From IMG/VR virus record IMGVR_UViG_3300044640_000771: a stretch of 64,000 nucleotides of DNA, one strand, 5' to 3'. The stretch is from a virus (taxonomy: Duplodnaviria > Heunggongvirae > Uroviricota > Caudoviricetes). Shown piece after piece: positions 8,120 through 23,543 of the stretch. The notes beneath the pieces were generated by a model. The model had not been told where the DNA came from. It saw only the letters and a program-made list of their open reading frames with translations, and did no database searches. The position numbers were made by a program, and so were the translations under genes. The number at the start of each line of letters is the position of its first letter. The stretch's first letter is position 1.

Positions 8120-9895
8120 ATGTGCGCAGCATTCGTTAAACATACGAATTGCGAAGAGTGTGGCTCAACCGACAACAAGGCAGTTTATGATGATAATTCT
8201 AGCCATTGCTTTGGTTGCGGCCACACTGTACTTAGCGATGAGTATAAGAAAGAATTGAAGGAAAAGAAGCCCTTGCAGATGCGCGTTAGGGCTTCTGCTG
8301 TTTCTACAGAACAAAAACAAGAAAGGGTAGCAATGAGTAAAGAAATGATCACTGATGAAGAGAATGAAGAACTAAAATCAAGGACGGAATTATCTGGCAA
8401 AGGTTATCGTGGAATCTCAGACGAAGTACTGAAGTTCTACGGATGCCGCACAGAGTTTGATGATGAAGGTGATGTGTATGCACGATACTATCCGTATACA
8501 ATCGATGGTAAACTGTCAGGATATAAGGTCCGAAAGCATCCTAAGACATTCGGTGGTAACATCGGAAATACTGGTAAGGACTGTGACTTATATGGTCAAT
8601 TCCGCTTTAAAAATGGAGGTAAATACCTTCTAATTGTTGAAGGGGAAGAAAAGACACATGCTGCCTACCAGATGTTTCTTGATTATGCCCGAAGTAAATC
8701 TTCAGAATTTGTTACAGCCGTTGTAGGCTTAGGGCAAGGTGTAGGGTCTACCAAGCAACTAGCAAATGCTTACGAATTCGTAAACTCTTTCGATACAATT
8801 TATCTGGGCATGGATTCCGATGAACCAGGACAAGAAGCTGTCGAAAAACTGGTAGCGGTATTACCTAAAGGTAAGGTAAAAATCGTAAAGTGGAGTAAAT
8901 ATAAAGACGCAGACGATTACCTATTGAATGACGCTGGGAGAAAGTTTCTGAACGACTTTTATAATGCGACTACCTATGTACCTGCTGGTGTAGTAGGTAG
9001 TTCTGAGTTGTACCAACAGTTGCTAGACATGGCTTTGGTTGAGAAGATTCCACTTCCACCTTTCATGAAGAAGCTTGACAATATGCTAGGTAGTATTGAG
9101 CTAGGTACAATTGGAATTCTTGCAGCAGGCAGTGGAGCAGCAAAGACAACCTTCGCAAACGAATGCCTCTATTTTTGGTTGTTCAATTCTCCGCATAAAG
9201 TGGGCGTAGTGAGTCTAGAATTAACTTGCGCTCAGTATGGTCAGGCTTTACTGTCTCGACACATTGAGAAAAGAATTTCTTCAATTCGTGACCCACAGGA
9301 GAAGTTTGAGTTCCTGAAGCAAAGCAGTATCAAGGATAAAGCCGACAGTTTATTTAAAAACAACGAAGGACACGACAGGTTCATGCTCATTGACGAACGT
9401 GAAGGTGCTGTTTCTGTCCTTCAGGACAAGATTGAAGAACTTGTGATATCATGTGGTTGCAGAGTAATCATTCTTGATCCGGTATCTGACCTACAGGATG
9501 GATTGTCTATTGATGAACAGGCTGTCTTTTCTAAGTGGATGAAGGGGATGGTGAAGCGATACAACATGACGTTCATTCTCATTGCTCACATTCGAAAGTC
9601 AGGTAGTAATAAAGACGCAGCATCATCAGGTTCTTTTATTCCAGAAGAAGCGATCATGGGTTCAAGTACACTATTTAAGTCAGCAAGCTGGGTTGTCATG
9701 ATGCAGCGAGACAAGTACAATGACGATCCTATCGTTAGGAATACCACTCGACTTACTTTAAGTAAGAACCGCAGTGGTGGTGAGACAGGTAATGCTGGAG
9801 AAGTGTATTACGATCCTGAAGAGCACAAGCTGTACGACTACAAAGAATTGTTTGGAAAGGATTTCGAAGCTCCAGAACAAATGAAACGCAACTGA
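8120..9895 (+). CDS. DNA primase/helicase (T7 gp4-like: zinc finger, TOPRIM, DnaB-like helicase)
   Basis: N-terminal CEECGS...CFGCGH zinc ribbon. Walker A GILAAGSGAAKTT. Helicase C-terminal motifs. 591 aa. Confidence 0.85.
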   Translation: MCAAFVKHTNCEECGSTDNKAVYDDNSSHCFGCGHTVLSDEYKKELKEKKPLQMRVRASAVSTEQKQERVAMSKEMITDEENEELKSRTELSGKGYRGISDEVLKFYGCRTEFDDEGDVYARYYPYTIDGKLSGYKVRKHPKTFGGNIGNTGKDCDLYGQFRFKNGGKYLLIVEGEEKTHAAYQMFLDYARSKSSEFVTAVVGLGQGVGSTKQLANAYEFVNSFDTIYLGMDSDEPGQEAVEKLVAVLPKGKVKIVKWSKYKDADDYLLNDAGRKFLNDFYNATTYVPAGVVGSSELYQQLLDMALVEKIPLPPFMKKLDNMLGSIELGTIGILAAGSGAAKTTFANECLYFWLFNSPHKVGVVSLELTCAQYGQALLSRHIEKRISSIRDPQEKFEFLKQSSIKDKADSLFKNNEGHDRFMLIDEREGAVSVLQDKIEELVISCGCRVIILDPVSDLQDGLSIDEQAVFSKWMKGMVKRYNMTFILIAHIRKSGSNKDAASSGSFIPEEAIMGSSTLFKSASWVVMMQRDKYNDDPIVRNTTRLTLSKNRSGGETGNAGEVYYDPEEHKLYDYKELFGKDFEAPEQMKRN

Positions 9896-9901
9896 TGAAT
9901 A

Positions 9902-9925
9902 CCTCCCTTCGGGGAGGTTTTCTTC
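9902..9925 (+). terminator. rho-independent terminator
   Basis: CCTCCC-TTCG-GGGAGG hairpin followed by TTTTCTTC. Confidence 0.6.
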
Positions 9926-9937
9926 ATTGGAGAACAA

Positions 9938-10531
9938 ATGAAACACATAAAAGATTACAATGCAATAAATTGGGAAAGCTATTTTTACTATGATGAAACT
10001 TCGCCGAGTAAATTGCGATGGAAAATTGACATTTATAAAGGAATAGGAAGAGTTGCCAAGGTTGTGAGAAAACACGATGTAGCCGGGTCTTTACACAAGA
10101 CTAAACGGTACTGGAGAGTTGTTCTTAACAAATCAACATATGTTGTTCATAGAATAATTTTCAAAATGCAAAATAAAGAATATAATCTGCTAACTGATGA
10201 TTTAATAGATCATATCGATAGAGATAAAACCAATAACTCAATCGATAATCTCAGACTTGTTTGTAACAGTGTTAACCATAGAAACATGAAACTAAGCGTG
10301 AGAAATAAATCAGGAATTACGGGTGTTTGTAGAACAACGAATAAAGATGGAATATCTGTTTGGAGGGTTACCTTTCGTAAGTTAGATAGTACACAGGGTC
10401 AGAAAGTTTTCTCTATAAATAAATACGGGGAAGAAAATGCTAGACAGATGGCAATCGACTATCGTGATAGAATGATTGACGAACTTAATCGGCAAGGTGC
10501 TGGTTATACTGAGAATCACGGAAAGGACTAA
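9938..10531 (+). CDS. HNH homing endonuclease (HNH_3 plus AP2-like), paralog of 727..1314
   Basis: DHIDRDKTNNSIDNLRLVCNSVNH motif. KSGITGVC...WRV AP2-like. C-terminus ENHGKD. Inserted between the primase-helicase and polymerase genes. Confidence 0.8.
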   Translation: MKHIKDYNAINWESYFYYDETSPSKLRWKIDIYKGIGRVAKVVRKHDVAGSLHKTKRYWRVVLNKSTYVVHRIIFKMQNKEYNLLTDDLIDHIDRDKTNNSIDNLRLVCNSVNHRNMKLSVRNKSGITGVCRTTNKDGISVWRVTFRKLDSTQGQKVFSINKYGEENARQMAIDYRDRMIDELNRQGAGYTENHGKD

Positions 10532-10532
10532 C

Positions 10533-12704
10533 ATGGAAGAAGTTAAGTTTATCGATGGAGATTGGGTATATGACATTGAGACATACCCTAACTGTTTTAC
10601 CTTCTGTATTGTCAAGTCGAATGGTAAGTATCTCAAGGTATTTGAAATCTCTTCACGTAAGAATGAGCAGGAAGGGCTATTTAAGTGCCTAGACTATCTG
10701 TATGACAATAAACAAGTATTAGTTGGATTCAATAACATTGGATTCGATTATCCAATTGTTCATCAAATCTACTCAGAATATCGTCGCAGTAAACGTAAGG
10801 TGTTTACCGCAGAGTATATCTATGATCTTGCACAAGAGCAGATTGCTTCATTCAAGACGGGTTTCGGTAAGACTGTATCCAACAATGACACCTTGATTAA
10901 ACAACGTGATCTATTCAAGATTCATCACTTCGATAACAAAGCGAAGAGTACCAGCTTGAAGATGCTAGAGTTCAACATGAAGTCCGACAATATCGAAGAC
11001 CTACCATTTCCTGTAGGTACAGTATTGACAGATGATCAAATGGATACTCTGATTACATATAACAAGCATGATGTACTGGAAACTCTGAAGTTCTATCAGA
11101 AGTCAATCCCTGCGATTCTACTTCGTGCAGACCTGACTGAGAAGTACGGTATTGACTTTACGAACTACAACGATACGAAGATTGGTAAGGAATACTTTAT
11201 CAAGCGATTGGAAGACGCTATTCCTGGTAGTTGTTATCGGAAAGAAGGTCACAAGCGAGTTGTCAATCAAACCCGCCGACCAATTATCAAGATCAAGGAT
11301 TGCCTGTTTGATTACTATGATTTCAAGCGACCGGAGTTCCAGGCTATTCTGGAATGGTTCAAGAATCAACGTATTCATGAAACCAAAGGTGTATTCAGTA
11401 ATATTGATGAAGGTGATCTAGGCGATGTAGCGCAATATGCTGAGTTGAAAGAGAAACGTCAGAAACTCAAAGGGAAACCTACTGACCAAGATATTGCTGC
11501 CTTCAAATCAGAACATCCGAAGGGATGGATTCAGACTGAAGAATTGAAAGCTACTTACACTGAGATTCAACCAGATGGTACGAAGGTTAAGAAGCACAAA
11601 CTATCTTACTGGAAACACTGGAGAGTTGCAGAGACACTTAACATCGTAGTTGATGGATTCCGATTTGACTTCGGTACAGGTGGTATTCACGGTAGTATCT
11701 CCAACAAGATTGCAAAAGCTACCTGGAAGTATAAGATCAAAGATGCAGACGTAGCGAGTATGTATCCGAATATCGCTATCTCCAATAATGTGTATCCTTT
11801 GCACCTTAGTTCTAAGTTCTGTGAAATCTATCTGGACGTTTACGAACAGCGCAAAAGTTTCAAGAAAGGTACTCCTGAGAATGCCGTTATGAAGCTAGCC
11901 TTGAACGGAGTCTACGGGGATAGTAACAACAAGTACGGTCCTTTCTATGATCCGCAGTATACAATGACGATTACTATTAACGGTCAGCTGTCACTTTGCT
12001 TGCTTGCTGAACGACTGATGGAAATCGAAGGTCTTAAGCTTATCCAGGTTAATACTGACGGTGTTACGGTAGCTCTTCCAATTGATAAGGAAGACGAGTA
12101 CAATCAAGTCTGTGCTGATTGGCAGAAGAAGGTTAAGCTTGAATTGGAATTCGCCGATTACTCGCAAATGCTAATCCGTGATGTGAACAACTATATTGCT
12201 GTTTACACCAACGGTAAGGTAAAGCGCAAAGGTGCATACCAGTATGAAGACCTGGGCTGGCATCAAAACCAAGGCGGATTGATTATTCCAATGGCAGCAG
12301 AAGCAGCAATGCTACGCGGAGAAGATATTGAAACTTTCATTCGTTCGCACAAGAACAAGTGGGATTTCATGCTTCGTACTAAGGTTCCTCGTAGCTCAAG
12401 ACTGGTGATGCGGTTCGAAGATGGTAGTGAGGTTGACCAGCAGAACATTTGCAGGTATTATCCTAGCAAGCAAGGTGGGAAGTTGGTCAAGATCATGCCT
12501 GCACTTGCTAACAAGGAAGATCAAAGCGACCGTGAGCTAGGGATCGACACTGCCTGGAATGTGAAGGTCTGCAACAACGCTTGCCTTTTTGACTTCGATG
12601 ATGTAGACTACGATTACTATGTTGCTGAAGCCACCAAGCTACTTGTTGGCGTAGAGCATTCCGAACCACTACCTAGCCGAGAGGATGAAGAAGATGAAAC
12701 CTAA
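10533..12704 (+). CDS. family B DNA polymerase with 3'-5' exonuclease domain
   Basis: Exo I DIETYPN, Exo II FNNIGFDYPI, Exo III YNKHDVLE. Polymerase motif A DVASMYPNIAIS, motif B KLALNGVYG, motif C QVNTDGVTV. Start MEEVKF at 10533. Confidence 0.8.
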   Translation: MEEVKFIDGDWVYDIETYPNCFTFCIVKSNGKYLKVFEISSRKNEQEGLFKCLDYLYDNKQVLVGFNNIGFDYPIVHQIYSEYRRSKRKVFTAEYIYDLAQEQIASFKTGFGKTVSNNDTLIKQRDLFKIHHFDNKAKSTSLKMLEFNMKSDNIEDLPFPVGTVLTDDQMDTLITYNKHDVLETLKFYQKSIPAILLRADLTEKYGIDFTNYNDTKIGKEYFIKRLEDAIPGSCYRKEGHKRVVNQTRRPIIKIKDCLFDYYDFKRPEFQAILEWFKNQRIHETKGVFSNIDEGDLGDVAQYAELKEKRQKLKGKPTDQDIAAFKSEHPKGWIQTEELKATYTEIQPDGTKVKKHKLSYWKHWRVAETLNIVVDGFRFDFGTGGIHGSISNKIAKATWKYKIKDADVASMYPNIAISNNVYPLHLSSKFCEIYLDVYEQRKSFKKGTPENAVMKLALNGVYGDSNNKYGPFYDPQYTMTITINGQLSLCLLAERLMEIEGLKLIQVNTDGVTVALPIDKEDEYNQVCADWQKKVKLELEFADYSQMLIRDVNNYIAVYTNGKVKRKGAYQYEDLGWHQNQGGLIIPMAAEAAMLRGEDIETFIRSHKNKWDFMLRTKVPRSSRLVMRFEDGSEVDQQNICRYYPSKQGGKLVKIMPALANKEDQSDRELGIDTAWNVKVCNNACLFDFDDVDYDYYVAEATKLLVGVEHSEPLPSREDEEDET

Positions 12705-12849
12705 TCTGGTACTTATCGTAGGAAACCGCGCCATTCGATACGTTAATGGTGTCCGTGATCAAATCGCTGAGATTGACTGGACTACTGATCGACGGGAGAT
12801 TCGGCGCGGAATTGAATCTTTTCGGGTTAACGGGATTAAGGAGTAAAAC

Positions 12850-13347
12850 ATGAAAGACATTGACTGGAGCAAACAGCATTGCGGAGTACATCAGGCACAC
12901 ATTGAAGACTTGTGCCATCTGATGCCCGATCTTGTACCTTTGCTTGAAACATTCCCTGATAATGCTTTTGACTTTACTTGGGATGTAAAAGTTCACATGT
13001 TGATGCCCCGTCAATATCCTTGCATTCCTAATTGGCACGTAGACAACGTACCTCGTTCTAAAGATGGACGACAAGAGTTTGATAAGGTACAATTGGATAA
13101 ACCGATGTACCTCTGGATCAGCAACGGCCCATTGACCGAGTTTGAAGATGGTTATATTCGTCCTAAGACTTGGGTAAAATTCAATCAAGCCGATAGCCAT
13201 CGTGGAACTGCAGCACAAGAGTTTTGCTGGCGAGGGTTTATCCGTGCAACGCACAAAGACATTTTGCCTTACGATGATAGTCGGACACTGCAACAAATTC
13301 AACGCAGGCATTGTCAAGTATACGTACCGGAGGATTACAAATGGTAA
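12850..13347 (+). CDS. hypothetical protein (possible HxD...H metal-binding / 2OG-Fe oxygenase-like)
   Basis: NWHVDNVP and ADSHRG spacing is suggestive but weak. Confidence 0.4.
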   Translation: MKDIDWSKQHCGVHQAHIEDLCHLMPDLVPLLETFPDNAFDFTWDVKVHMLMPRQYPCIPNWHVDNVPRSKDGRQEFDKVQLDKPMYLWISNGPLTEFEDGYIRPKTWVKFNQADSHRGTAAQEFCWRGFIRATHKDILPYDDSRTLQQIQRRHCQVYVPEDYKW

Positions 13348-13559
13348 ATAAAATCTACGGAGATATTGACAAATTCATTGAAGCTAACTATCTTACCAGT
13401 CAACTGGAAGAGAGTCTAATGTCATGGCCAATTTTCCAGAAAGCATTGGGTGACAGCAAAGACAGTTACCTGATTGATGCGTTGGTAAAATGCCACGAAC
13501 GAGTGGTTCTAATTTCACAGAAACTTGAAGAATATCGAATTTCACTTTTGAAGGGGTAA
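13341..13559 (+). CDS. hypothetical protein
   Basis: Start MVNKIYG. Confidence 0.35.
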   Translation: MVNKIYGDIDKFIEANYLTSQLEESLMSWPIFQKALGDSKDSYLIDALVKCHERVVLISQKLEEYRISLLKG

Positions 13560-13562
13560 TGT

Positions 13563-13742
13563 ATGGATCGTAACGAAATTCGTGAACTGATCTTTGAAGA
13601 AATTCAAGATCGCCTAAGAGTGGATATTCAGCGCCGCTGGGATGAAGTAGTAGTCAAGCTATACTGGCGTATCGATCCAGTCTGGACGCCCGAGGGGTAC
13701 AAAACAGAAGTACCCATTGCAGAATCAAATTACTATATTTAA
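13563..13742 (+). CDS. hypothetical small protein
   Basis: About 59-aa ORF, MDRNEIRELIFEE. Confidence 0.3.
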   Translation: MDRNEIRELIFEEIQDRLRVDIQRRWDEVVVKLYWRIDPVWTPEGYKTEVPIAESNYYI

Positions 13743-13751
13743 GGAGTAAAT

Positions 13752-14003
13752 ATGCTCATCCTACTAGCAATCTATGTTGTGTCAGCTACGCTTATCACTT
13801 CAATGTTATACGCTAATTTGCAAAGTTACTACCCAACTATGGCAAATGCATATGCAAGGCGAGATTTAGGTTTTGCTTGGTCATACGGAATTATCCTCGG
13901 TTTCGTTGGTCCATTTGGAGTACTACTTGTTCTCTTGCTTTCAGGCTTTGCAGAGGATGGGTTTCTGAATCCATTTAAGTTTAATAGAAATACAAAGGAG
14001 TAA
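13752..14003 (+). CDS. small membrane protein
   Basis: Two transmembrane segments. AAGGAG SD. Confidence 0.4.
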   Translation: MLILLAIYVVSATLITSMLYANLQSYYPTMANAYARRDLGFAWSYGIILGFVGPFGVLLVLLLSGFAEDGFLNPFKFNRNTKE

Positions 14004-14006
14004 ACC

Positions 14007-14813
14007 ATGCCAGTACAAATCCATAAAAATGACAAACCTTGCTTGTACAAGCAATGGACTTTCCCAGGCGGAGAAGTCGGTGTACAATTGTTGGATACCG
14101 ATATCGAAGATCGGGATGAAATTTGGATTACCATTCGAGGTATCCCAACACCTGAAGATATGTTCGTTGCAGCAAACTTGCTGAATGCTATCCGAAATGT
14201 AAACAGCAAAGCTGAAGTCAACCTTTATATGCCCTACATTCCGTATGCAAGGCAAGATCGGGTTTGCAACAAGGGTGAATCTTTCGGGCTGATGGTATAT
14301 TTTGACATGATGCAGTATATGTTCGCTGATGTTGATCACTTCACTACGGTTGATCCGCACAGTCGAGTAGCAGAAGACTTGGTAAATGCTTTTGAATGCA
14401 CCATTATTCCACAGCACGTTATGGCTGGATCAATTTTGCATTCTTTCAACTATGACACTCTGATTGCACCCGACAAAGGAGCTACAGAAAAGGCTAAGAA
14501 ATTCAATCACAAGAATCTAGTAACTCTCAGCAAGTCCAGGACTGCAGAAGGTATCAAGTACGATGATTACGAGCATGATACTCTTTCGGGTTCCGTTCTG
14601 GTTGTAGACGATATCTGCGACGGTGGAGGTACGTTTCTGTCGCTGATTGATATGCTTAAACGTACCCAACCTCGTGTGACAAGTTATGCTCTGTACGTCA
14701 CACACGGTATCTTCAGCAAGGGTGTTGACGTTCTGCTGAAGGCTGGCTACAATGAAGTCTTTACAGCAAACAACATGCTTGAAATTGGAAGGAACAAATA
14801 TGTACACAATTGA
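14007..14813 (+). CDS. ribose-phosphate pyrophosphokinase (PRPP synthetase) family protein; candidate ADPR-PP synthetase (Adps-like) of a NAD+ reconstitution pathway
   Basis: PRPS motif YARQDR and PRPP-binding loop VLVVDDICDGGGT. Sits immediately upstream of, and overlapping, the NAMPT-like gene. Confidence 0.8.
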   Translation: MPVQIHKNDKPCLYKQWTFPGGEVGVQLLDTDIEDRDEIWITIRGIPTPEDMFVAANLLNAIRNVNSKAEVNLYMPYIPYARQDRVCNKGESFGLMVYFDMMQYMFADVDHFTTVDPHSRVAEDLVNAFECTIIPQHVMAGSILHSFNYDTLIAPDKGATEKAKKFNHKNLVTLSKSRTAEGIKYDDYEHDTLSGSVLVVDDICDGGGTFLSLIDMLKRTQPRVTSYALYVTHGIFSKGVDVLLKAGYNEVFTANNMLEIGRNKYVHN

Positions 14814-16362
14814 CCCAATCATCCAAACAGATTTTTACAAGATCCATCACAAGTTTCAGTACCACCCCAAGACTGAAATGATCTACAGTAACTTCACCCC
14901 TCGGTCAAATCGACTGGCACCTGTCTACGGTTCCAATCGTAAGATTCGTAAGGTTGTGAACTTCGGTTTGCAGGGTTTCATCAAGAACTTCCTGATTGGT
15001 ATCTTCAACAAGAACTTCTTCCAGCAAGACATTGCTGTGATCAAGGCTAAGTATGCTCGTCTGTGTGGTGTCGATACAACACACATTGAAGAGTTGCATG
15101 CTCTCGGTTACCTGCCGATTAAAATCAAGGCGCTTCCTGAAGGTGAACTGATCCCCATGAAGGTTCCGATGTTTACCGTCAAGAGCACCTTGCCAAAGTT
15201 CTATTGGCTGGTGAATTACCTGGAAACGGTTATGTCAGATGAAATCTGGAAGCCTACTACGGTAGCTACCATTGCCTTTGAGTACCGCAAGCTGCTGGAA
15301 CACTATGCAACGAAGACTGGTTCTCCGCTTGATTTCGTCAAGTGGCAAGGTCACGATTTCTCTATGCGTGGTATGTCCGGTATGGTCGATGCTGCTGCCT
15401 CTGGTTCCGGTCACTTGCTGCCATTCACTGGTACAGATACAATCCCTGCAATTGATTATCTTGAGCAATTGTATGGTGGCCTGAATACCTTTGTTGGTGC
15501 GTCGGTTCCTGCCAGTGAGCACAGTACTGCCAGTGCAAACATTCTCTTCAATGCTCGCCAGATCAAGGGTGAGACTGATACCGAAGAAGTTATGTATGAA
15601 GCTGAACGCGCTTTCCTGAAGCGATATATCACCGAGATTTACCCTACTGGTGTAGCTAGTTATGTCAGTGATACCTTTGACTTCTTCCGAGTTATCAATG
15701 AGATTGCCCCTTCGCTGAAGAAGGAAATTATGTCTCGTCAGCCTGATGCTCTAGGATTGAATAAGGTTGTATTCCGTCCTGACAGTGGTGATCCTGTTGA
15801 GATTCTGTGCGGTCAAGATGTAACGGATGAAAACATTGAACGCACTCCCGAGCAGAAGGGTGCTGTAGAAGTTCTGTGGGATCACTTCGGTGGTACAATT
15901 ACCGAAACAGGTCACAAGCTGCTTGACTGCCACGTTGGTCTGATCTACGGTGACAGCATCACTCTGAGCCGCGCCGAAGAGATTCTTCGCAAGCTTGAGC
16001 AGAAGGGATTTGCTTCTGGTAACGTAGTCTTCGGTATCGGTAGTTTCACCTATCAGTACTTGACACGAGACACCTTCGGCTTTGCTATGAAGGCTACTTA
16101 CCAAGTAGTTGACGGTGAAGGTATCGAACTCTTCAAAGACCCTGTTACCGACAGTGGTACTAAGAAGTCTGCTCGTGGTCTGCTACTTGTCACGAAGGAT
16201 GATCTTGGCTACAATCTGATTGATCAAGTCGATGGTGCAACAGAAGAGATTGGCTGTCTGCGAACGGTGTTCAAAGATGGTGTGTTGACAGTCGATGATG
16301 ATCTGGCTACAATTCGTACTCGGGTTGAGCAAAACCTGATCCAAGAACTGCAAGACTACTAA
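14800..16362 (+). CDS. nicotinamide phosphoribosyltransferase (NAMPT/NadV) family protein; candidate Namat-like enzyme
   Basis: N-terminal IIQTDFYKIHH (NAMPT TDSYK-like). About 520 aa, the typical size. SD GGAAGGA before the ATG at 14800. Confidence 0.85.
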   Translation: MYTIDPIIQTDFYKIHHKFQYHPKTEMIYSNFTPRSNRLAPVYGSNRKIRKVVNFGLQGFIKNFLIGIFNKNFFQQDIAVIKAKYARLCGVDTTHIEELHALGYLPIKIKALPEGELIPMKVPMFTVKSTLPKFYWLVNYLETVMSDEIWKPTTVATIAFEYRKLLEHYATKTGSPLDFVKWQGHDFSMRGMSGMVDAAASGSGHLLPFTGTDTIPAIDYLEQLYGGLNTFVGASVPASEHSTASANILFNARQIKGETDTEEVMYEAERAFLKRYITEIYPTGVASYVSDTFDFFRVINEIAPSLKKEIMSRQPDALGLNKVVFRPDSGDPVEILCGQDVTDENIERTPEQKGAVEVLWDHFGGTITETGHKLLDCHVGLIYGDSITLSRAEEILRKLEQKGFASGNVVFGIGSFTYQYLTRDTFGFAMKATYQVVDGEGIELFKDPVTDSGTKKSARGLLLVTKDDLGYNLIDQVDGATEEIGCLRTVFKDGVLTVDDDLATIRTRVEQNLIQELQDY

Positions 16363-16366
16363 TTGA

Positions 16367-18457
16367 TTGAAAGGGAACATCTTGAAACTGCAAACTAACT
16401 CTACCAGTATTGAAATCAGTGGGAACAATGATAGCTCACAGTTCAGCATTGCCATGAATGGTAAAGCTTTCCGTGTTCTGTCAGACACTCTCTACAAGAA
16501 CAAGATTGGTTCGATTGTTCGTGAACTTTCCTGCAATGCATATGACGCTCATGTGATGGCAGGTAAGCAAGATGTTCCCTTCACTCTGCACTTGCCTGAT
16601 GCATTTGAACCTTGGTTCTCTGTGCAAGACAAGGGTGTCGGTCTGTCTCCAAAGGATATCACCAGCGTTTTTACCGTCTACTTTCAGTCTACGAAAGATA
16701 ATAACAACGACGCTATTGGTGCATTCGGTCTTGGTGCTAAGACTCCCTTTAGCTACACCGACCAGTTCAGTGTAACTTCTGTCAAGGATGGCAAGAAGTA
16801 TATCTACTCTGCTTACATTACTGAATCTGGTGTTCCCAGTATTTCGGAAATGCATTCGGAAGATACTACCGAAGAGAATGGCGTAGAAATCAAAATGTCT
16901 GTCAAGCAGCAAGACTTCCGTACATTCAGGACCGAAGTTGAGAATCAACTGCGCTTCTTCAAGGTTAAGCCTGCAATTGAAAATGGTACTGTTACTTTTG
17001 CACAATTCGGCAATGTAGTCTTCGATACTGATTACGGTACGATTCACAACCGTAGCTATAGTGTTTATCCTGCGATCTATATCGTTCAAGGTAACGTTGG
17101 CTACATCGTTGATCGTAACGAAATCAAGAACAATATCTCTGCTGAAGCAAATGCATACCTGCATCTGTTGCACAACTACGATGTTATTCTTCGTTTTAAC
17201 ATTGGCGAAATCGGTGTCACTGCTTCCCGCGAAGGTGTAGAGTACAACGCGACTACTTGCAAGAACATTGAACAAAAGATCACTAATCTGAAAAAGTCTG
17301 TGATTGAACAGTTCGATGAAAAGCTTAAGAAATTCCCTACGGATTGGGAGAAGGTTGCTTATGTGAATACCGATGCGTTGATGCAGACATTGGGTAAGTA
17401 TCCTGATGGCGTCAAGGTTGACGGTGGTTACATGGTTAGTAATCTTGCGTTGCCTGATGTTAAGATTATCGCTCGTAGTACAATGCGTCGATCTGCACCG
17501 ATGTATTCTTACTCGGTGAACAAGGCTGGGGTTTCGCAGTACAACTTCAAGGTTCGTATTGATTCCAAGAAGGACGTTAAGTTCGTCATCAAGGATTCCA
17601 GCACGATGATTAGCGCTAAGTATCGTCAGTTGTATGCTGGTTTCAACGGTGTAATTTACGAAATCACTCCTTACGATGGTTTCGACCTGGAGGAATTCAA
17701 GAAGAGCATCGGTGGTTACGATGAATTCATCAAGGCATCGGAAGTTATTCTTCCTCCTGCTGTAAAGAAGAAGTATACTCGTTCGAATTACTACAAGTAT
17801 TGCGCTGGTGCATCCATGTCTATCCGTAGCTGGACTCGTGAGCCTGGGGAAGATATCGAAGACATTGAAGATGAAACACTGTACGTTGAAGTGAAAGATG
17901 GTAACGTAGTTGACATGGATTCGATTCGTCAGTACAATGCTGTTTCTTACTTCGAAGAAGTACCTGAACTGATCGCTATCCGTGAAGCTGACATTGCAGA
18001 AGCAGAAAGCAACGGTAATTTGATTCCGCTGAAGGACTACATTGAAAACAAGATCAAGGAGTACAATGTCAATTCTTCACTGAAAAAGAAGTATCTTGCT
18101 TTTGATGCTGCTTCGACTTATAAAAACTCGCTGTTCTATCAGCTGTTTAACGATGAGTTCGTAAAGCAAATCAAAAAGCTTGCGGTTGACAGCGAAATCA
18201 ATAAGTTGTATACCGCACTTCAGAAAGCAAGTAAGCGACCTGGGATGACAGATAAAGAAGTGAATATTTGTCAGTTCATGGGTTGGGATCGTGATAAGCA
18301 AAAGCTTCAACAGCGCAGGTATTCGATTGCTCGCAATTTTGTCAACAAGCTGGAGAAGAAGTATCCTTTGTTGCGAGTTGCATTGAGTAGTTCGTATTCA
18401 AATAACACCGTAGAAACTGCCGCAGCACAGTATGTTGCACTAATCAATAAGGAGTAA
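16367..18457 (+). CDS. rIIA: rIIA-like protein (GHKL ATPase fold)
   Basis: N-terminal region resembles T4 rIIA: IVRELSCNAYDAH (N-box), VQDKGVGLS (G1), GAFGLGAKTPFSYTDQFSVTS (G2). 696 aa. Probable TTG start. Confidence 0.8.
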   Translation: MKGNILKLQTNSTSIEISGNNDSSQFSIAMNGKAFRVLSDTLYKNKIGSIVRELSCNAYDAHVMAGKQDVPFTLHLPDAFEPWFSVQDKGVGLSPKDITSVFTVYFQSTKDNNNDAIGAFGLGAKTPFSYTDQFSVTSVKDGKKYIYSAYITESGVPSISEMHSEDTTEENGVEIKMSVKQQDFRTFRTEVENQLRFFKVKPAIENGTVTFAQFGNVVFDTDYGTIHNRSYSVYPAIYIVQGNVGYIVDRNEIKNNISAEANAYLHLLHNYDVILRFNIGEIGVTASREGVEYNATTCKNIEQKITNLKKSVIEQFDEKLKKFPTDWEKVAYVNTDALMQTLGKYPDGVKVDGGYMVSNLALPDVKIIARSTMRRSAPMYSYSVNKAGVSQYNFKVRIDSKKDVKFVIKDSSTMISAKYRQLYAGFNGVIYEITPYDGFDLEEFKKSIGGYDEFIKASEVILPPAVKKKYTRSNYYKYCAGASMSIRSWTREPGEDIEDIEDETLYVEVKDGNVVDMDSIRQYNAVSYFEEVPELIAIREADIAEAESNGNLIPLKDYIENKIKEYNVNSSLKKKYLAFDAASTYKNSLFYQLFNDEFVKQIKKLAVDSEINKLYTALQKASKRPGMTDKEVNICQFMGWDRDKQKLQQRRYSIARNFVNKLEKKYPLLRVALSSSYSNNTVETAAAQYVALINKE

Positions 18458-18460
18458 TTC

Positions 18461-19390
18461 ATGAAATATATCATTGGTTCGGATAGCGTCACTGTTTTTG
18501 TTGACGGCAAGCCCTGCACAGTAAATAAGCAGGCACCTACATATAATCTAGTCATCAAGGCACTGAAGAGTGGTAATGTTGATGAACTGCGCAATGCAAT
18601 CAATATTCGTCAGTCAATTGTTACGAATTTGAATAGCAAGGCCAAGGGTAAGGTTCGAATTGAATCTAGCCGAATCTTCTACGAAGATCGTGAAGTTACA
18701 GGTCTGATCGCAGGTCGTGTCTTTGAAGTGATCCGCCTTGGTCTGGATGTTCAACCGATGGTCAACTTCATTGAAAACCTGATGAAGAATCCTTCGAAGC
18801 GTGCAACTGACGAACTGTTCGGTTTCATGGATGCATGCGATCTGCCTATCACTGAAGACGGTCATTTCCTGGCATACAAGCGTGTACGTTCAGACTACAA
18901 GGATGTTTACTCTGGTACTATGGACAATAGCGTAGGTAAAGTTCTGGAAATGTCTCGAAATCTTGTTGACGAAGATAAGGATAACACTTGCTCTTACGGT
19001 CTGCATTTCTGTAGCTACGATTATTTGCAGCACTTCAGCGGCGATCGTGTCATGGTTCTGAAGATTAACCCTGCCGATGTAGTGGCTATTCCTTCAGACT
19101 ATAACAACGCGAAGGGTCGTGCTTGCCGATACGAAGTAGTTGACGAACTTCCTGTGAATGGTAAAATGCCAGAGTACAAGATTCAGGCAAACTACTCAGC
19201 TGACTACGCAAAGCCGGTTTCAACCTCACCAATCGGTCAGACGAAGCTGGGTGCCTCTTCTGTTCGTGCAATTAAGCACATGCTGGCAAATGGTGTAGCA
19301 ATCGCAGTTATCGCTCGTAAGTTCAACGTGAGTTCGCGTACCGTGGCTCGTATCCGTGATGGTCAAGTGGAGGCTTATAAGAATGTCTAA
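18461..19390 (+). CDS. rIIB: rIIB-like protein
   Basis: 309 aa directly after rIIA. Conserved rIIB block ITEDGHFLAYKRVRSDY...CSYGLHFCSYDYLQHF...IPSDYNNAKGRACRYEVV. Confidence 0.8.
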   Translation: MKYIIGSDSVTVFVDGKPCTVNKQAPTYNLVIKALKSGNVDELRNAINIRQSIVTNLNSKAKGKVRIESSRIFYEDREVTGLIAGRVFEVIRLGLDVQPMVNFIENLMKNPSKRATDELFGFMDACDLPITEDGHFLAYKRVRSDYKDVYSGTMDNSVGKVLEMSRNLVDEDKDNTCSYGLHFCSYDYLQHFSGDRVMVLKINPADVVAIPSDYNNAKGRACRYEVVDELPVNGKMPEYKIQANYSADYAKPVSTSPIGQTKLGASSVRAIKHMLANGVAIAVIARKFNVSSRTVARIRDGQVEAYKNV

Positions 19391-19640
19391 TGTAGCTAAA
19401 CTGAAAGAAGTACTTGCTAAAATCAAGGTAGACAACAAGTGCGATGCTGAAAAAGTTGTGCGAGAGCTTTGTTCATTCGTCAATGATGTAGAAGATAAAA
19501 TTGCAGAAATTGCAATTGAATATCAGATTCGTGCTCACATTGCCGGACCATACGGTGCGAGTCGTTGGGTAAGTCTTGAAGGTGATTCCTACTACGACAT
19601 TGAACCCGGCGAGTGGCAAGCTTCTGCTCAATCCTGTTAA
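19383..19640 (+). CDS. hypothetical protein
   Basis: Start MSNVAKLKEVL. Confidence 0.35.
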   Translation: MSNVAKLKEVLAKIKVDNKCDAEKVVRELCSFVNDVEDKIAEIAIEYQIRAHIAGPYGASRWVSLEGDSYYDIEPGEWQASAQSC

Positions 19641-19643
19641 CAA

Positions 19644-19661
19644 GAAGGGCTTCGGCCCTTC
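19644..19661 (+). terminator. stem-loop (weak terminator or RNA-processing hairpin)
   Basis: GAAGGGC-TTCG-GCCCTTC. The 3' T-tract is weak. Confidence 0.35.
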
Positions 19662-19679
19662 TATTCAAAGGAGAATACG

Positions 19680-19874
19680 ATGTATCTATCAAACGATGAA
19701 TATAAGCCCCTAGCTGTAAGCGCGGATGCCCTAGAAAAAGTAGTTGCTTTCATGATTGAAAATGAAATTAACTTTGTAAGGGCCACCGACGAAGATTCAG
19801 CAGATGGTATCGTGTCACTAGCCAATGATGAACTGGCTGAATGGCAACCATCGTGGGAAGAGTCGAGTTGCTAA
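19680..19874 (+). CDS. hypothetical acidic protein
   Basis: 64 aa, AAAGGAG SD. Confidence 0.35.
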   Translation: MYLSNDEYKPLAVSADALEKVVAFMIENEINFVRATDEDSADGIVSLANDELAEWQPSWEESSC

Positions 19875-19883
19875 GGAGGTAAT

Positions 19884-20102
19884 ATGAACCAAAAAGAATT
19901 CGATAACCTTGTCGATGAACATAATGAACTCGTACTAGAAAGTGAAAACAAGCTGGTAAAGATTGCTCTGGAGAATAATCTAAAACTTGAACTTGGTGCT
20001 GCTTATGGTGAAGGTCGAATGCTTCTTCTGGAAGATGACAACAAAGACTGGGGATCAGGCAAGAAGCGGGGCGAATGGTTGTACTCTTCGGAAAGTTGCT
20101 GA
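19884..20102 (+). CDS. hypothetical protein
   Basis: 72 aa, AAGGAGG SD. Confidence 0.35.
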   Translation: MNQKEFDNLVDEHNELVLESENKLVKIALENNLKLELGAAYGEGRMLLLEDDNKDWGSGKKRGEWLYSSESC

Positions 20103-20329
20103 TGAAATTCTGTTCTGATTGTAAACACTATCGTGAACAACTCAGTGGGCAATGGTGTTATCATCCTTCACTCGGTGTTCGGATTGTAGACGGCACTTCG
20201 AATCGAAAATACTGCGTTACAATGCGGCATGAACATGGAGATTGTGGGCCAAATGCCAAGTTGCACGAAGAAAAGACTTCCGCTACAATCATTCCATTCT
20301 GGAAAAAACTCTTTAAGTTGAAAGGATAA
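20102..20329 (+). CDS. hypothetical Cys-rich small protein (zinc-ribbon-like)
   Basis: MKFCSDCKHY...CYHP...CVTMRHEHGDC. Confidence 0.35.
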   Translation: MKFCSDCKHYREQLSGQWCYHPSLGVRIVDGTSNRKYCVTMRHEHGDCGPNAKLHEEKTSATIIPFWKKLFKLKG

Positions 20330-20330
20330 C

Positions 20331-21281
20331 ATGCTAGTTCTTATTGGTTCCCGCGCTATCGAATACTGGTGCAATGACTTCCGAAAAGTCGGTCCTGACT
20401 ATGATTTCATTGGTACAAAAGAAGAATTCAAGAGTTTGGTTACTCGTCTGATTCAAGACGGAAATCGCCTAGTTGAATTGAAATTCATCGAGGGAACCAA
20501 TAAGGCATACGCTAAGTTCAGCAAGTTCATCATTGACATGAGTATGGTTGATGTTGACGGTCCTCTGCGAGAGTCTGATGCGGAAATCTATGAGTATGCC
20601 AAGCATCGGTTTGGTTGCATTTTTCTGAAAGAACTTGACAACTACTTCATGCTTTCTACTTTGGAACTCAACTTTGTCTTGAAGGAATCCCATAAGTTCA
20701 AGAAGAATAGTCCGCACTTCCTCAAGACGATGCAAGACCTAGAGTTTCTTCGCAGGTTTACAAATGAAAACATTATCAATGTGTATCTTCGTGAAGTACT
20801 TGACCGACGCAAGAAAGCAACGTACAATTACCAGCATCCTAAGTTGAACACCAGCAAACAGGAGTTCTTCACGGATTCTGTACCGTATCAGTACGATCAT
20901 GATACAATTCATGAAGCGGTTAAGCACTTGGACAAACCTGCGTATCAGTACTACATGCAAGACGATGCCCAGGTAATGTGCAGTAGCGACAAGTTCTTCG
21001 CGCAGCCTGAGATTGTTCGGTTGTATGGTGTACTTGAAGAAAGCTATGTACTTGCCCTGGAACGTGCTGTGATTCCACACGGTACTAATCCAGAACGTGC
21101 ATTTGAGATTGCACTGGAGAAAGTTTGCACCAGCATTACCAGCGGATGGTTCCGTGAGTATGCTTACGAGAACTACTTCAAGGTGAAGAATATGTACCAC
21201 GCTAGCTATGTTGACAAGTTCAACCGAGCCTTGTACAATAACCAGATCAAACCATTTAAGGAGAGTTCTTATGCCAAGTAA
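20331..21281 (+). CDS. hypothetical protein with N-terminal nucleotidyltransferase-fold signature
   Basis: VLIGSRAIEYWCNDFRKVGPDYDFIG matches hG[GS]-x-DhD of KNTase-type minimal NTases. About 250 aa of unknown C-terminal region. Confidence 0.45.
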   Translation: MLVLIGSRAIEYWCNDFRKVGPDYDFIGTKEEFKSLVTRLIQDGNRLVELKFIEGTNKAYAKFSKFIIDMSMVDVDGPLRESDAEIYEYAKHRFGCIFLKELDNYFMLSTLELNFVLKESHKFKKNSPHFLKTMQDLEFLRRFTNENIINVYLREVLDRRKKATYNYQHPKLNTSKQEFFTDSVPYQYDHDTIHEAVKHLDKPAYQYYMQDDAQVMCSSDKFFAQPEIVRLYGVLEESYVLALERAVIPHGTNPERAFEIALEKVCTSITSGWFREYAYENYFKVKNMYHASYVDKFNRALYNNQIKPFKESSYAK

Positions 21282-21744
21282 AATTCAAACAGTCTACGGT
21301 AACGTACTTGACTTTACTGAAAATGCTGTTATGATTCATGGCTGCAATTGTCAGGGTGTGATGGGTAGTGGTGTTGCGTTGGCTGTACGGGAGAAGTATC
21401 CTGATGTGTTCGCTGATTATCGCACGTTGTGCAACCTCTACGCCGACGATTCCTCTCGATTGCTAGGTGACAATCAGTATGTGTATGTGTCGGAGAATCA
21501 TGTTATTGTGAATGCAATGACGCAAGACTTCTTCGGTGGAGGTAGGCAGATCAATTACGAAGCTATCTATCTGTGCTTCGAACGTGTAAATCAGTTCTTG
21601 ACAAACGTTGCATTTGAAGCTACACTCTACTTTCCAAAGATTGGTGCAGGACTCGGTGGTGGTAACTGGGAAATCATCAAGACAATTATTGAACAAACCG
21701 TTGACCAGAAGTTCAATCCGACTCTGGTAGAATTTTCAGGTTGA
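21271..21744 (+). CDS. macro domain (ADP-ribose binding/processing) protein
   Basis: VMIHGCNCQGVMGSGVALAV and IGAGLGGGNWEII match macro-domain glycine-rich motifs. TAAGGAG SD before the ATG at 21271. Confidence 0.7.
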   Translation: MPSKIQTVYGNVLDFTENAVMIHGCNCQGVMGSGVALAVREKYPDVFADYRTLCNLYADDSSRLLGDNQYVYVSENHVIVNAMTQDFFGGGRQINYEAIYLCFERVNQFLTNVAFEATLYFPKIGAGLGGGNWEIIKTIIEQTVDQKFNPTLVEFSG

Positions 21745-21769
21745 CTTCATCGTGTGAATCGGTTATAAT
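21741..21769 (+). promoter_or_regulatory. consensus sigma70-type promoter (TTGACT-N17-TATAAT) upstream of the SSB gene
   Basis: TTGACT at 21741-21746, exact 17-nt spacer, TATAAT at 21764-21769. About 100 nt upstream of the 21867 start. Confidence 0.7.
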
Positions 21770-21866
21770 GAAATATAAGAAGCAGGATGCTTCTGCCATT
21801 AGGCAATAGTTGGTAGACTAGCAATCAACACTACCAAATGTCAACTCTATGTGAAAGGATCACAAA

Positions 21867-22478
21867 ATGCTAAAACAACTAGAAGGTACTCTCGTTTACG
21901 TCATGTGCGACAAACCCACTCCTTGCTATGAAAAGGATAAGGGTACAGAATGGAAAGCTGGTATCGTACTAACTGACGAAGATACGGTTGATCTATTCGA
22001 TGAGACTTATCCTAAGCAGTCTGCTAAGAAAGTCAAGTCAAGCGAATTTGAAGAAATTTACAAGTGCAAGCTGCCAGAAGGTGCAGGTAAGAACGTATGG
22101 GTCATCACCCTGAAGAAGAATACCAAGCTATCAAACGGTGAAGATGTACCTGATAAGTATCGTCCGCACGTATTCGAAGTAACTGAAAGCGCAGGTAAGA
22201 AAGTAATGACCGACATTACCTTTACCAAGCTGGCTGGTAACGGATCAAAGGGTATTCTTACCATTGATCACTGGGCTGGTGAAAAGGGTAACGTAGCTCG
22301 TCTGAAGAACGTAGCTGTTACTGAACTGATCGAATATGTCAAGCCTGAAGGTTCAGACTACAATCCTGGTGATGAGTTTGATTTCGGTGATGCTCCTGCT
22401 CCAAAGGCTGAAGCAAAGAAGCCAGCTGCGAAGAAAGCAGTGAAGAGTGATGCAGAAGACGATGGCGCTCCCTTCTGA
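21867..22478 (+). CDS. ssb: single-stranded DNA-binding protein
   Basis: 203 aa with a lysine/alanine-rich linker and acidic C-terminal tail ending DDGAPF (SSB-type C-terminus). Strong promoter upstream. Confidence 0.65.
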   Translation: MLKQLEGTLVYVMCDKPTPCYEKDKGTEWKAGIVLTDEDTVDLFDETYPKQSAKKVKSSEFEEIYKCKLPEGAGKNVWVITLKKNTKLSNGEDVPDKYRPHVFEVTESAGKKVMTDITFTKLAGNGSKGILTIDHWAGEKGNVARLKNVAVTELIEYVKPEGSDYNPGDEFDFGDAPAPKAEAKKPAAKKAVKSDAEDDGAPF

Positions 22479-22600
22479 TGTGATTAAAACCACGTAGAGA
22501 AATCTACGCAGGATTAGCTGGTTACTAAGGTTCCTAGGGACTGAATGTGGTAGAATTCCAGCAAAGACATACAATTAGCCCTGATGTATGTTACTAATTA

Positions 22601-22677
22601 GCGTCCTTAGCTCAGAGGATCAGAGCAGTGGTCTTCTACACCATAGGTCGGGAGTTCGAATCTCTCAGGACGCACCA
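22601..22677 (+). tRNA. tRNA-Arg (anticodon UCU)
   Basis: Hand-folded cloverleaf. Acceptor GCGTCCT/AGGACGC, D-stem GCTC/GAGC with GG loop, anticodon loop CTTCTAC, T-loop GGGAG-TTCGAAT-CTCTC, CCA encoded. Confidence 0.85.
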
Positions 22678-22684
22678 GAACATT

Positions 22685-22770
22685 GGGCAACTGACCAAGT
22701 GACAAATTGGTACAGTCGGCAGATTCAAAATCTGTGGTTTTTCCCGGTTCGATTCCGGGGTTGCCTACCA
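22685..22770 (+). tRNA. aberrant tRNA-like element (tRNA-Leu CAA-like; possibly a pseudo-tRNA)
   Basis: Acceptor GGGCAAC/GTTGCCT plus A plus CCA. T-arm CCCGG-TTCGATT-CCGGG. Anticodon arm GCAGA-TTCAAAA-TCTGT. Leu-type D-arm GAC-AAATTGGTACA-GTC. However, 7 extra nt (ACCAAGT) follow position 9 and the variable region is only 7 nt. Confidence 0.45.
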
Positions 22771-22777
22771 GATCAAC

Positions 22778-22900
22778 GGGAGCGCAAGGTCATTCCTTGC
22801 ATTTATGGAAAGTAATTTTGTGAGTGTGTAGAACTGCCAAATGCCTAGGAATGAAGGTGAGACTGCACAAAACCAAATCCATATCTAGCTGCTCCCACCA
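22778..22900 (+). ncRNA. candidate small structured RNA with tRNA-like acceptor end
   Basis: 123-nt spacer begins GGGAGCG and ends TGCTCCC-A-CCA (7-bp terminal helix plus discriminator plus CCA). No T-loop or anticodon arm recognisable. An internal hairpin CAAGG-TCATT-CCTTG is present. Confidence 0.25.
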
Positions 22901-22906
22901 AACAAC

Positions 22907-22980
22907 GGGGTCTTAATTCAATGGTAGAATATTCGGCTTTTACCCGATCAACATAGGTTCGATTCCTATAGGCCCTACCA
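22907..22980 (+). tRNA. tRNA-Lys (anticodon UUU)
   Basis: Acceptor GGGGTCT/AGGCCCT. D-arm ATTC-AATGGTA-GAAT. Anticodon loop CTTTTAC. T-arm ATAGG-TTCGATT-CCTAT. CCA encoded. Confidence 0.85.
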
Positions 22981-22990
22981 AATCCAGATT

Positions 22991-23467
22991 ATGAAAACAA
23001 TACTTAAAATATACGGTCCATACCAACATGAAAATGGTAGATTATTTGTAGTAGCAAAATACAGTGACGGTAGTAAAGGAAGTATTTCTTATCCTAAATA
23101 CTTAATGGAATTACATTTGGGTAGAAAACTACTACCAAATGAAACAGTCGATCATATCGATAGAAACTATCTCAATAATGAAATATCAAACCTGCAGATT
23201 TTAGATAGATCGTTACATGTAAAGTTAGACGTAAAGCGACGACAAGACGAAATCTTAACTTGTATTTGGTGTAATGCAAATTTCTTAAAGACAGGAAAAA
23301 TTTTATCCACCCAAAACTCCAGAATAAAACATACAGCAGGCCCGTTCTGCAGTAAAAAATGTTCAGGAAAATACGGAGCATCAATTCTTCATGATGGCAT
23401 CGAGCCACTAGCAAGAGTGCAAAACCCTAAGAACTATTATCAATTAGATAAATCCTCAGTAGTTTAA
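22991..23467 (+). CDS. HNH homing endonuclease embedded in the tRNA cluster
   Basis: VDHIDRNYLNNEISNLQIL HNH_3 motif. C-terminal Cys cluster (CIWC...CSKKC). Starts 11 nt after tRNA-Lys. Confidence 0.75.
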   Translation: MKTILKIYGPYQHENGRLFVVAKYSDGSKGSISYPKYLMELHLGRKLLPNETVDHIDRNYLNNEISNLQILDRSLHVKLDVKRRQDEILTCIWCNANFLKTGKILSTQNSRIKHTAGPFCSKKCSGKYGASILHDGIEPLARVQNPKNYYQLDKSSVV

Positions 23468-23543
23468 TGGTAAAACAGCGGAATTATACCCCGTAGCGCC
23501 AGATAAGCGGCTAATATTGGTTCGAATCCAGTTTGAGGAACCA
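23453..23543 (+). tRNA. aberrant tRNA-like element (class II length, anticodon ambiguous, UAU if the canonical fold is imposed)
   Basis: Acceptor TCCTCAG/TTGAGGA plus A plus CCA. D-arm GTTT-AATGGTA-AAAC. T-arm ATTGG-TTCGAAT-CCAGT. The middle 39 nt fold poorly (A-C mismatch closing the anticodon stem, 21-nt extra arm). The 5' end overlaps the HNH stop codon. Confidence 0.4.

Follow-up and report, generated by a model that had tools for sequence, protein, structure and literature searches.

The 64,000-nucleotide stretch of DNA analysed here (hereafter, the window) comes from a virus of the class Caudoviricetes (IMG/VR record IMGVR_UViG_3300044640_000771) and carries at positions 14007–16362 a pair of overlapping genes that very probably forms an NAD reconstitution pathway 1 (NARP1) module, its substrates and counter-defence phenotype being read from homology. 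NARP1 has two enzymes: the Prs homologue Adps, which pyrophosphorylates ADP-ribose (ADPR), and the NAMPT homologue Namat, which converts the resulting ADPR pyrophosphate (ADPR-PP) and nicotinamide to NAD+ (Osterman et al., bioRxiv 10.1101/2024.02.11.579819). The system has been found in 859 of 20,185 sequenced phage genomes (4.3%), with an adjacent Namat for 97% of the Adps-clade genes. A second pathway, NARP2, is composed of a KVP40-type Nampt and an Nmnat, and the NAMPT-like proteins of NARP1 and NARP2 form distinct clades (bioRxiv 10.1101/2024.02.11.579819). The pair in the window phage is a typical copy of a known and common kind of system.

The first gene, adps (14007..14813, + strand), codes for a Prs-family protein of 268 amino acids, the predicted ADP-ribose pyrophosphokinase and first enzyme of NARP1, as judged from PHROG 619, a neighbour-joining tree and profile hidden Markov models (HMMs). 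The second, namat (14800..16362, + strand), codes for a NAMPT-family protein of 520 amino acids, the predicted nicotinamide ADP-ribose transferase and second enzyme of NARP1, as judged from PDB scores, a neighbour-joining tree and HMMs. The 520 residues are counted from the ATG at 14800, while the longer open reading frame (ORF) opens at 14752. Shine-Dalgarno-like sequences precede both starts (AAGGAG, 7 nt 5' of 14007, and GGAAGGA, 5' of 14800), and the starts are the same in public gene calls for identical metagenome contigs. The original prediction, made from the letters of the window without database searches, had described a Prs homologue with the motifs YARQDR and DDICDGGGT overlapping by 14 nt a 520-residue NAMPT homologue. 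Both motifs are located in the product of 14007–14813, as parts of PYARQDR and VDDICDGGGTF, and the 14-nt overlap, on the same strand with adps first, is exact to the base (14800–14813). The Prs-like protein belongs to PHROG 619 (2.3e-63, 215 bits), the family that also holds the Adps of Vibrio phage ICP1; both of its Pfam matches lie under the gathering scores, and its NCBIfam match to PRK00934 has an E-value of 9e-30. The NAMPT-like protein matches PF04095 (8.7e-36), PF18127 (7e-09) and NCBIfam PRK09198 (533 bits, cut-off 405). At the nucleotide level the best megablast match among 50,697 phage records is 258 nt at 75%, and an exact 44-mer had no match in IMG/VR. Counts of promoters and terminators in 9800–24300 are not above those of shuffled sequences, and therefore no operon boundaries can be claimed; strong hairpins number only two, at 9901 and 24174, one on either side of the gene block.

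Analysis of the NAMPT-like protein places it with the Namats. A phmmer search of the PDB scored 494 bits against the Namat of SPbetaL1 (9W5X/9W5W), 392 bits against 9KE8, 222 bits against mammalian NAMPT and 181 bits against 7YQO, which we take to be a Xanthomonas Nampt. For the comparison of clades, the protein was aligned with the Namats of SPbetaL1, Gary, ICP1, Felixounavirus (phage skuden), Kayvirus and APT65 and with four NARP2-type phage Nampts, namely those of a KVP40-like Schizotequatrovirus, Yersinia phage JC221, Aeromonas phage Aes508 and Xanthomonas phage LucasX, the gene of the last adjoining NadM. It is 54% identical to SPbetaL1 Namat and 30–33% identical to the four NARP2-type proteins. 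Neighbour-joining trees separate Namats from NARP2-type Nampts in 100 of 100 bootstraps, and in 97 of 100 the window protein is nested within the clade that SPbetaL1, Felixounavirus and Gary delimit. HMMs built without the window protein give the same picture (591 bits for the Namat model vs 247 bits for the NARP2-Nampt model), and the insertions specific to Namats are present in the alignment.

Structures of SPbetaL1 Namat (9W5X and 9W5W) have defined an adenine selectivity clamp made of a helix with the consensus GS-X-Phi-X-Phi-X-Phi-TRD, in which X is aromatic (F392 and Y396), and of R40, contributed by a variable loop (Lan et al., PMC12774641). The selectivity-clamp helix (SCH) motif of the window protein, G414-S-F-T-Y-Q-Y-L-T-R-D424 (16039..16071, + strand), fits this consensus, with F416 and Y420 corresponding to F392 and Y396, whereas the NARP2-type Nampts have GMGGGLLQxxxRD at the same site. 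In the selectivity-clamp loop (SCL), S36-N37-R38 align to T38-S39-R40 of SPbetaL1, and the arginine in the third position fits the R/K/Y rule; the codon of Arg38, the counterpart of the adenine-stacking Arg40, lies at 14911..14913 (+ strand). All the checked NAD+-contact residues of 9W5W are kept, including R40, F392, Y396, T398, R399 and D400 of the clamp, with the sole exception of A362, which is a serine in the window protein and in most of the other Namats (ICP1, Gary and Felix O1-like). The catalytic core F189, R192, D215, catalytic His, R306 and D308 is present as F187, R190, D213, H241, R326 and D328. Another entry in the same tree, 9KE8/9KEO, is labelled nicotinamide phosphoribosyltransferase in the PDB and groups with the SPbetaL1 and Kayvirus Namats; its clamp variant, GAQTYQRNTRD, is devoid of the first and third aromatic residues.

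The Prs-like protein is likewise separated from true Prs. There are 7,583 matches to it in a collection of 5.8 billion proteins, and the best 120 of these are nearly all 260–300 amino acids long and located on metagenome contigs of up to 87 kb. We aligned 29 sequences, comprising 19 of the collection matches, six reference proteins of Adps type (ICP1, Gary, skuden, Kayvirus, APT65 and Acinetobacter, the SPbetaL1 Adps sequence not being among them), the window protein and three true Prs (E. coli, M. jannaschii and S. solfataricus, the last two partial), which served as the outgroup of the tree. The Adps-like sequences are monophyletic and apart from true Prs in 100 of 100 neighbour-joining bootstraps, and in 93 of 100 the window protein lies among functionally validated members, inside the group descended from the most recent common ancestor of the ICP1, Felixounavirus and Kayvirus Adps. 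It scores 160 bits with an Adps HMM vs 79 bits with a Prs HMM. All 11 NCBIfam Prs models that it matches do so below cut-off, the best equivalog being PRK00934 (104 bits vs a cut-off of 296), while E. coli Prs reaches 423–533 bits on the NCBIfam/TIGRFAM Prs models. With TIGR01251 (cut-off 113) the scores are 95.5 bits for the window protein, 98 for ICP1, 100 for Gary, 124 for skuden and 423 for E. coli Prs. A PDB search with the window protein returned no Adps entry among its matches, the best being M. jannaschii Prs with 58 bits.

The structure of ICP1 Adps identifies F18, R87, F92, H121, D161, D212 and D213 as acceptor residues and K185 as the catalytic lysine, and it reveals a remodelled PP loop (C215–S220, F221 and F223) and a family-wide loss of the C-terminal alpha11-alpha12 module of Prs (Liu et al., PMC13586617). 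Adps activity is abolished by K185A in ICP1 and by K162A in SPbetaL1 (PMC13586617; bioRxiv 10.1101/2024.02.11.579819). The lysine is present in the window protein as Lys176 (codon at 14532..14534, + strand), in a column conserved in all aligned Adps and Prs. Further conserved residues are F19, R82, H118, D156, D201, D202, I203, C204, D205, G206 and F210, so that, together with K176, the equivalents of F18, R87, H121, D161, K185, D212–G217 and F221 of ICP1 are in place. The PP loop D201-D-I-C-D-G-G-G-T-F210 (14607..14636, + strand), equivalent to the ATP-donor site of ICP1 Adps, reads DDICDGGGTF vs DDMIDTGGTL in E. coli Prs; the Adps-type C204, D205-G206 and F210 replace the I, D/S-T and L/M/I of true Prs. 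The window protein carries the motifs THGIFSKG and DPHS, is devoid of the N-terminal insert and the C-terminal alpha11-alpha12 region of Prs, and stops about 40 residues short of the end of E. coli Prs, like all other Adps.

NARP1 does not use an NMN (nicotinamide mononucleotide) adenylyltransferase, and the original prediction had noted the absence of such a gene nearby. Indeed, Pfam scans of 68 window ORFs (E ≤ 1e-3) detected no CTP_transf_like, NUDIX, NadR-type or PnuC domain, and none of these domains is among the precomputed Pfam matches for 8.4 kb of left flank and about 7 kb of right flank. The left flank was taken from a 99.99%-identical contig and the right flank, which does not overlap with the left, from a 96% relative, bringing the DNA examined for an NMNAT to about 79 kb in total. 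As to the marks of NARP2, the window protein is not a KVP40-clade Nampt and has no GMGGGLLQ, and an Nmnat was absent from the scanned window ORFs and the roughly 15 kb of flanks; the marks of NARP3 (a PnuC-like transporter and a NadR-like bifunctional enzyme) were absent from the Pfam scans of the window ORFs.

The module would be expected to act as follows. A host NADase effector of SIR2, TIR or SEFIR type would cut NAD+ into ADPR and nicotinamide. Adps would then pyrophosphorylate ADPR at its 1'' hydroxyl, using the beta,gamma-pyrophosphate of ATP, to give ADPR-PP, and Namat would exchange the pyrophosphate of ADPR-PP for nicotinamide, forming NAD+ directly with no NMN intermediate and no need for an NMN adenylyltransferase. 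The NAD+ supply of the phage would be kept in this way, and defences based on NAD depletion would be escaped. The original prediction favoured NARP1, and the clades of both proteins, the clamp, the PP loop, the C-terminal truncation, the adjacency of the genes and the lack of an NMNAT in the examined DNA all argue for that choice. Two of the checks it had proposed, a comparison of both proteins with profile HMMs and an inspection of substrate-site residues, also point to the NARP1 type, since the HMM scores favour Adps over Prs and Namat over NARP2 Nampt, and the catalytic and acceptor residues of Adps (bar F92) and the Namat clamp match. However, its statement that the sequence alone cannot separate NARP1 from salvage through phosphoribosyl pyrophosphate (PRPP) and NMN no longer holds. 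The structural signatures of SPbetaL1 Namat (PMC12774641) and ICP1 Adps (PMC13586617) make NARP1 separable from KVP40-type NARP2 by sequence, and the window locus has those of NARP1.

Several observations nevertheless weigh against a NARP1 assignment. The SCL of the window Namat is 7 residues longer than the SPbetaL1 loop, and the catalytic hairpin of its Adps is 2 residues shorter than that of ICP1. In databases, the window Namat has its closest homologue (57% identity) on an Acinetobacter chromosome, and members of the family of this homologue have been described as NMN-forming NadV. Two contacts of ICP1 Adps, F92 (adenine) and F223 (ATP lid), are replaced by C87 and S212 in the window protein. 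However, these positions also vary in the Adps of Gary, skuden, Kayvirus and APT65 (F/M/E/V and F/E/G/F, respectively) and, because they vary among other NARP1 Adps, the two columns do not define the family. The Prs outgroup of the Adps tree comprises just three sequences, two of them partial, and substrate choice is read from the motifs of one Namat structure and one Adps structure. Related contigs are 81–87 kb long, so a few kb of the genome lie outside the examined DNA. Finally, without ADPR-PP at hand, Namat enzymes still turn PRPP into NMN (PMC12774641), and a secondary PRPP-dependent role of the window protein is conceivable.

One rival reading is classical salvage, in which a true PRPP synthetase and a true nicotinamide phosphoribosyltransferase would yield NMN, to be turned into NAD+ by a NadR/NadD/PncC route of the host or by an unseen phage NMNAT, following a logic like that of KVP40 and NARP2. 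The Pfam and NCBIfam names of both proteins agree with such a route, the formation of NMN from PRPP by Namat-family enzymes has been observed in vitro (PMC12774641; bioRxiv 10.1101/2024.02.11.579819), and an NMNAT gene could lie in the few kb beyond the examined DNA. However, we consider it very unlikely. Both proteins belong to NARP1 clades, apart from Prs and from NARP2 Nampt; the adenine clamp is complete where NARP2-type enzymes have GMGGGLLQ; and the Prs-like protein falls below cut-off with every Prs model it matches, level with validated Adps, of which the SPbetaL1 enzyme does not act like a PRPP synthetase (bioRxiv 10.1101/2024.02.11.579819). An NMNAT gene was not detected in the roughly 79 kb examined. 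In the study that defined the pathways, an Nmnat accompanies 94% of NARP2-clade Nampts, and NARP1 and NARP2 were never seen together in one phage (bioRxiv 10.1101/2024.02.11.579819).

The pair might also serve two uses, as NARP1 under NADase attack and as a booster of NAD+ and PRPP for phage nucleotide metabolism in undefended cells. Namat keeps about half of the NMN-forming activity of human NAMPT (PMC12774641), and the phage has a large nucleotide-metabolism set, including ribonucleotide reductase (RNR), dCMP deaminase and ThyX. Yet SPbetaL1 Namat made only NAD+ when both substrates were present, NARP1 phages did not raise NAD+ in defence-free cells (bioRxiv 10.1101/2024.02.11.579819), and PRPP synthesis by Adps is not known, which leaves a double role with a slight chance. 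That the genes are a decaying or non-functional remnant of NARP1 is improbable in the extreme. Decay is seen elsewhere, in the Namat of ICP1 isolate 2017_Dha_B, but both ORFs of the window are uninterrupted, follow good ribosome-binding sites and retain all catalytic residues, and their products turn up again in several independent metagenome assemblies.

Among known NARP1 systems, that of SPbetaL1 is also a two-gene adps-namat arrangement, has a clamp identical save for one position (GSFTYQY(L/N)TRD) and keeps the loop arginine. It differs in that the window Namat has about 17 extra residues following the catalytic His region, an insertion like that of Felix O1-like Namats, and in its Bacillus host, whereas the window phage probably infects freshwater Betaproteobacteria. 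The Felix O1-like coliphages (genes 79–80 of Bas63, compared here through Escherichia phage skuden of the same genus) likewise have Adps, Namat and then rIIA close by, and skuden has GSYTYQYMTRD in Namat and DDICDGGRTF in the Adps loop. The virion module is related as well, with terminase and capsid matches of the window phage to the Felix O1/PAK_P1-like supergroup. However, identity to the window proteins is about 33% for Adps and 44% for Namat, and the two genes of skuden are parted by an HNH homing endonuclease gene instead of overlapping. An adps-namat overlap is found in APT65, of 31 nt compared with 14 nt in the window.

ICP1 Adps has in common with the window protein the catalytic Lys, the acceptor Arg, His and Asp, the DDICDG loop, F221, THGIFSKG and the loss of alpha11-alpha12, although the identity is about 38% over the C-terminal 70% (tblastn). 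In the genome of ICP1 isolate 2017_Dha_B (MW794158.1), we observed an in-frame stop near the N-terminus of the Namat frame and a clamp ending in TCD, not TRD, and the record annotates a shortened 'hypothetical protein' at this place; NARP1 may be decaying in this isolate. The NARP2 system of Vibrio phage KVP40 has an enzyme in the same superfamily as the window Namat (PF04095/PF18127, PHROG 448) and the same end product, NAD+. However, its Nampt belongs to the other clade, has no adenine clamp and no Prs-like partner, and requires an Nmnat, a CTP_transf_like enzyme that is often fused to Nudix.

The best 'phage' match of the window Namat, with the 57% identity mentioned above, lies at 50627–53844 of CAKLQF020000015.1, a contig filed as Acinetobacter phage MD-2021a. 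Here a prs-like gene (DDICDGGATF) stands beside a nadV-like gene (GSFTYNYLTRD), both with NARP1-type signatures, and a neighbouring gene is annotated NadM. We rejected this neighbour as a sign of classical salvage, as the sequence is a bacterial chromosome, the Adps and Namat signatures are present, and the supposed NadM is the ADPR-responsive repressor NrtR (NF050029, 471 bits, cut-off 400). The locus has the appearance of a NARP1-type operon of bacteria that is switched on by ADPR, its own substrate, and it probably serves housekeeping or regulatory salvage and not counter-defence. Among bacterial NARP1-like operons, which include pfNARP1 of Paenibacillus foliorum, the Acinetobacter one differs from the window locus by being chromosomal and carrying NrtR.

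Directly downstream of namat, in the same accessory block, are homologues of rIIA (16382–18457, + strand; PHROG 612, 3.6e-126) and rIIB (18461–19390, + strand; PHROG 609, 6.9e-77; PF26926 Phage_T4_rIIB). The proteins rIIA and rIIB are classically tied to escape from Rex-type abortive infection. The order Adps-Namat-rIIA also occurs in Felixounavirus skuden, and the order rIIA-rIIB-Adps in one metagenomic relative. Among cultured phages, those closest to the window phage are Limnohabitans phage DC31, with a 75% identical terminase, and Curvibacter phage P26059A, with a 73% identical capsid protein. Both phages are syntenic with the window around the primase/helicase, DNA polymerase, DUF7275 and SSB-like genes. 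However, block 12850–20329, which holds small ORFs, adps, namat, rIIA and rIIB, is missing from both, as is the macro-domain gene described below. The absence of this block from syntenic relatives marks the module as accessory cargo just after the polymerase gene, and the block makes up a variable accessory region whose place in the genome is fixed. Accessory status of the gene pair is what would be expected of counter-defence cargo.

The macro-domain gene reported some 5 kb downstream in the original prediction is real. It starts 4.9 kb after the namat stop as the eighth gene downstream (21271..21744, + strand; PF01661, 26.6 bits) and codes for a protein of 157 amino acids, a candidate detached ADPR-1''-phosphate phosphatase. 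Such a phosphatase, the macro-domain protein Adpp, extends NARP1 in 15% of operons, and NARP1-AP has been defined operationally by a macro gene at most two genes from the NARP1 pair (bioRxiv 10.64898/2026.01.28.702374). The distance in the window exceeds this limit, but the protein is a macro-domain protein of the Poa1p-like kind. It matches PHROG 335 'phosphatase' with 139 bits (4.6e-40), the family in which the validated ADPR-1''-phosphatase Adpp of Vibrio phage Gary scores 171 bits; it is 23% identical to Gary Adpp over the full length (BLASTP, E=7e-9); and its PDB matches include BT1257 (1e-11) and yeast Poa1p (6LFU and 6LFQ, 4e-9 to 1e-8). In Gary, whose NARP1-AP (Adps-Adpp-Namat) also has homologous Adps and Namat, the macro gene lies between adps and namat. 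The two macro proteins have the motifs CNC..MG.G.A and P.IG.GL.GG.W in common, but the window protein more closely resembles macro proteins that have no tie to NARP1 and belong to T4-like and jumbo phages.

It is possible that the macro protein is a detached Adpp, but its link to NARP1 is only suggestive. On a wider view, adps, namat, rIIA and rIIB would form together with it a larger accessory counter-defence block with a dispersed NARP1-AP, in which the macro protein would turn ADPR-1''-phosphate, the product of aRES-type RES NADases, into ADPR and so feed NARP1. We find this wider view rather doubtful, as the nearest homologues of the macro protein (about 39% identity) come from T4-like and jumbo phages, and 2,710 phage records hold a member of PHROG 335, a spread that goes well past NARP1. 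NCBIfam also indicates a DarG-like similarity. If the view were true, dispersed NARP1-AP would have been missed by the published search within two genes, and NARP1-AP would be commoner than 15% of NARP1 operons. The start of the macro gene is overlapped by 11 nt by a gene (20331–21281, + strand) for a DUF7277/DUF7275 protein (PHROG 2141, function unknown), for which no sequence homologue was found in the PDB. This gene is also present in DC31, P26059A and one metagenomic relative. It was considered as a NARP1 partner and rejected, because it is a core gene kept in DC31 and P26059A, both of which are without NARP1.

The locus extends the occurrence of NARP1 modules to a lineage of uncultivated freshwater phages about 85 kb in size. 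The absence of the module from cultured relatives that infect Limnohabitans and Curvibacter hints at NAD-depleting defences in these abundant lake bacteria. The locus is also a worked example of how the clamp motif and the Adps PP loop with the C-terminal truncation tell NARP1 from PRPP/NMN salvage, which may be useful for re-annotating the many phage genes named ribose-phosphate pyrophosphokinase or nicotinamide phosphoribosyltransferase.

The rest of the window comprises, according to Pfam scans of its ORFs, one module for replication and nucleotide metabolism and one for the virion. RNR and dCMP deaminase are encoded in the window and ThyX beyond it, in the left 8.4 kb extension, which also carries genes for Gad2, AAA_33, a metallophosphatase and an HU-like protein. 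The Gad2-domain gene (PF26128, anti-Gabija; 200 amino acids) is situated about 1.3–1.9 kb beyond window position 1 on the minus-strand side and gives the phage at least one more candidate counter-defence gene. The ORF at 27551–28072 (+ strand) has a MazZ-like dATP/dGTP diphosphohydrolase N-terminal domain (PF18909, 88.7 bits); with no adenylosuccinate-synthetase-like PurZ seen in the window, nothing points to a 2-aminoadenine genome. Two dCMP-deaminase ORFs (312–791 and 1259–1609, − strand) flank an HNH/AP2 endonuclease ORF (727–1314), and the deaminase gene appears to be split by this homing endonuclease. Further HNH/AP2 genes are located at 9938–10531 and 22991–23467, and three tRNA genes, for Arg(TCT), Lys(TTT) and Ile(TAT), lie in 22601–23543 (+ strand), interspersed with an HNH endonuclease gene.

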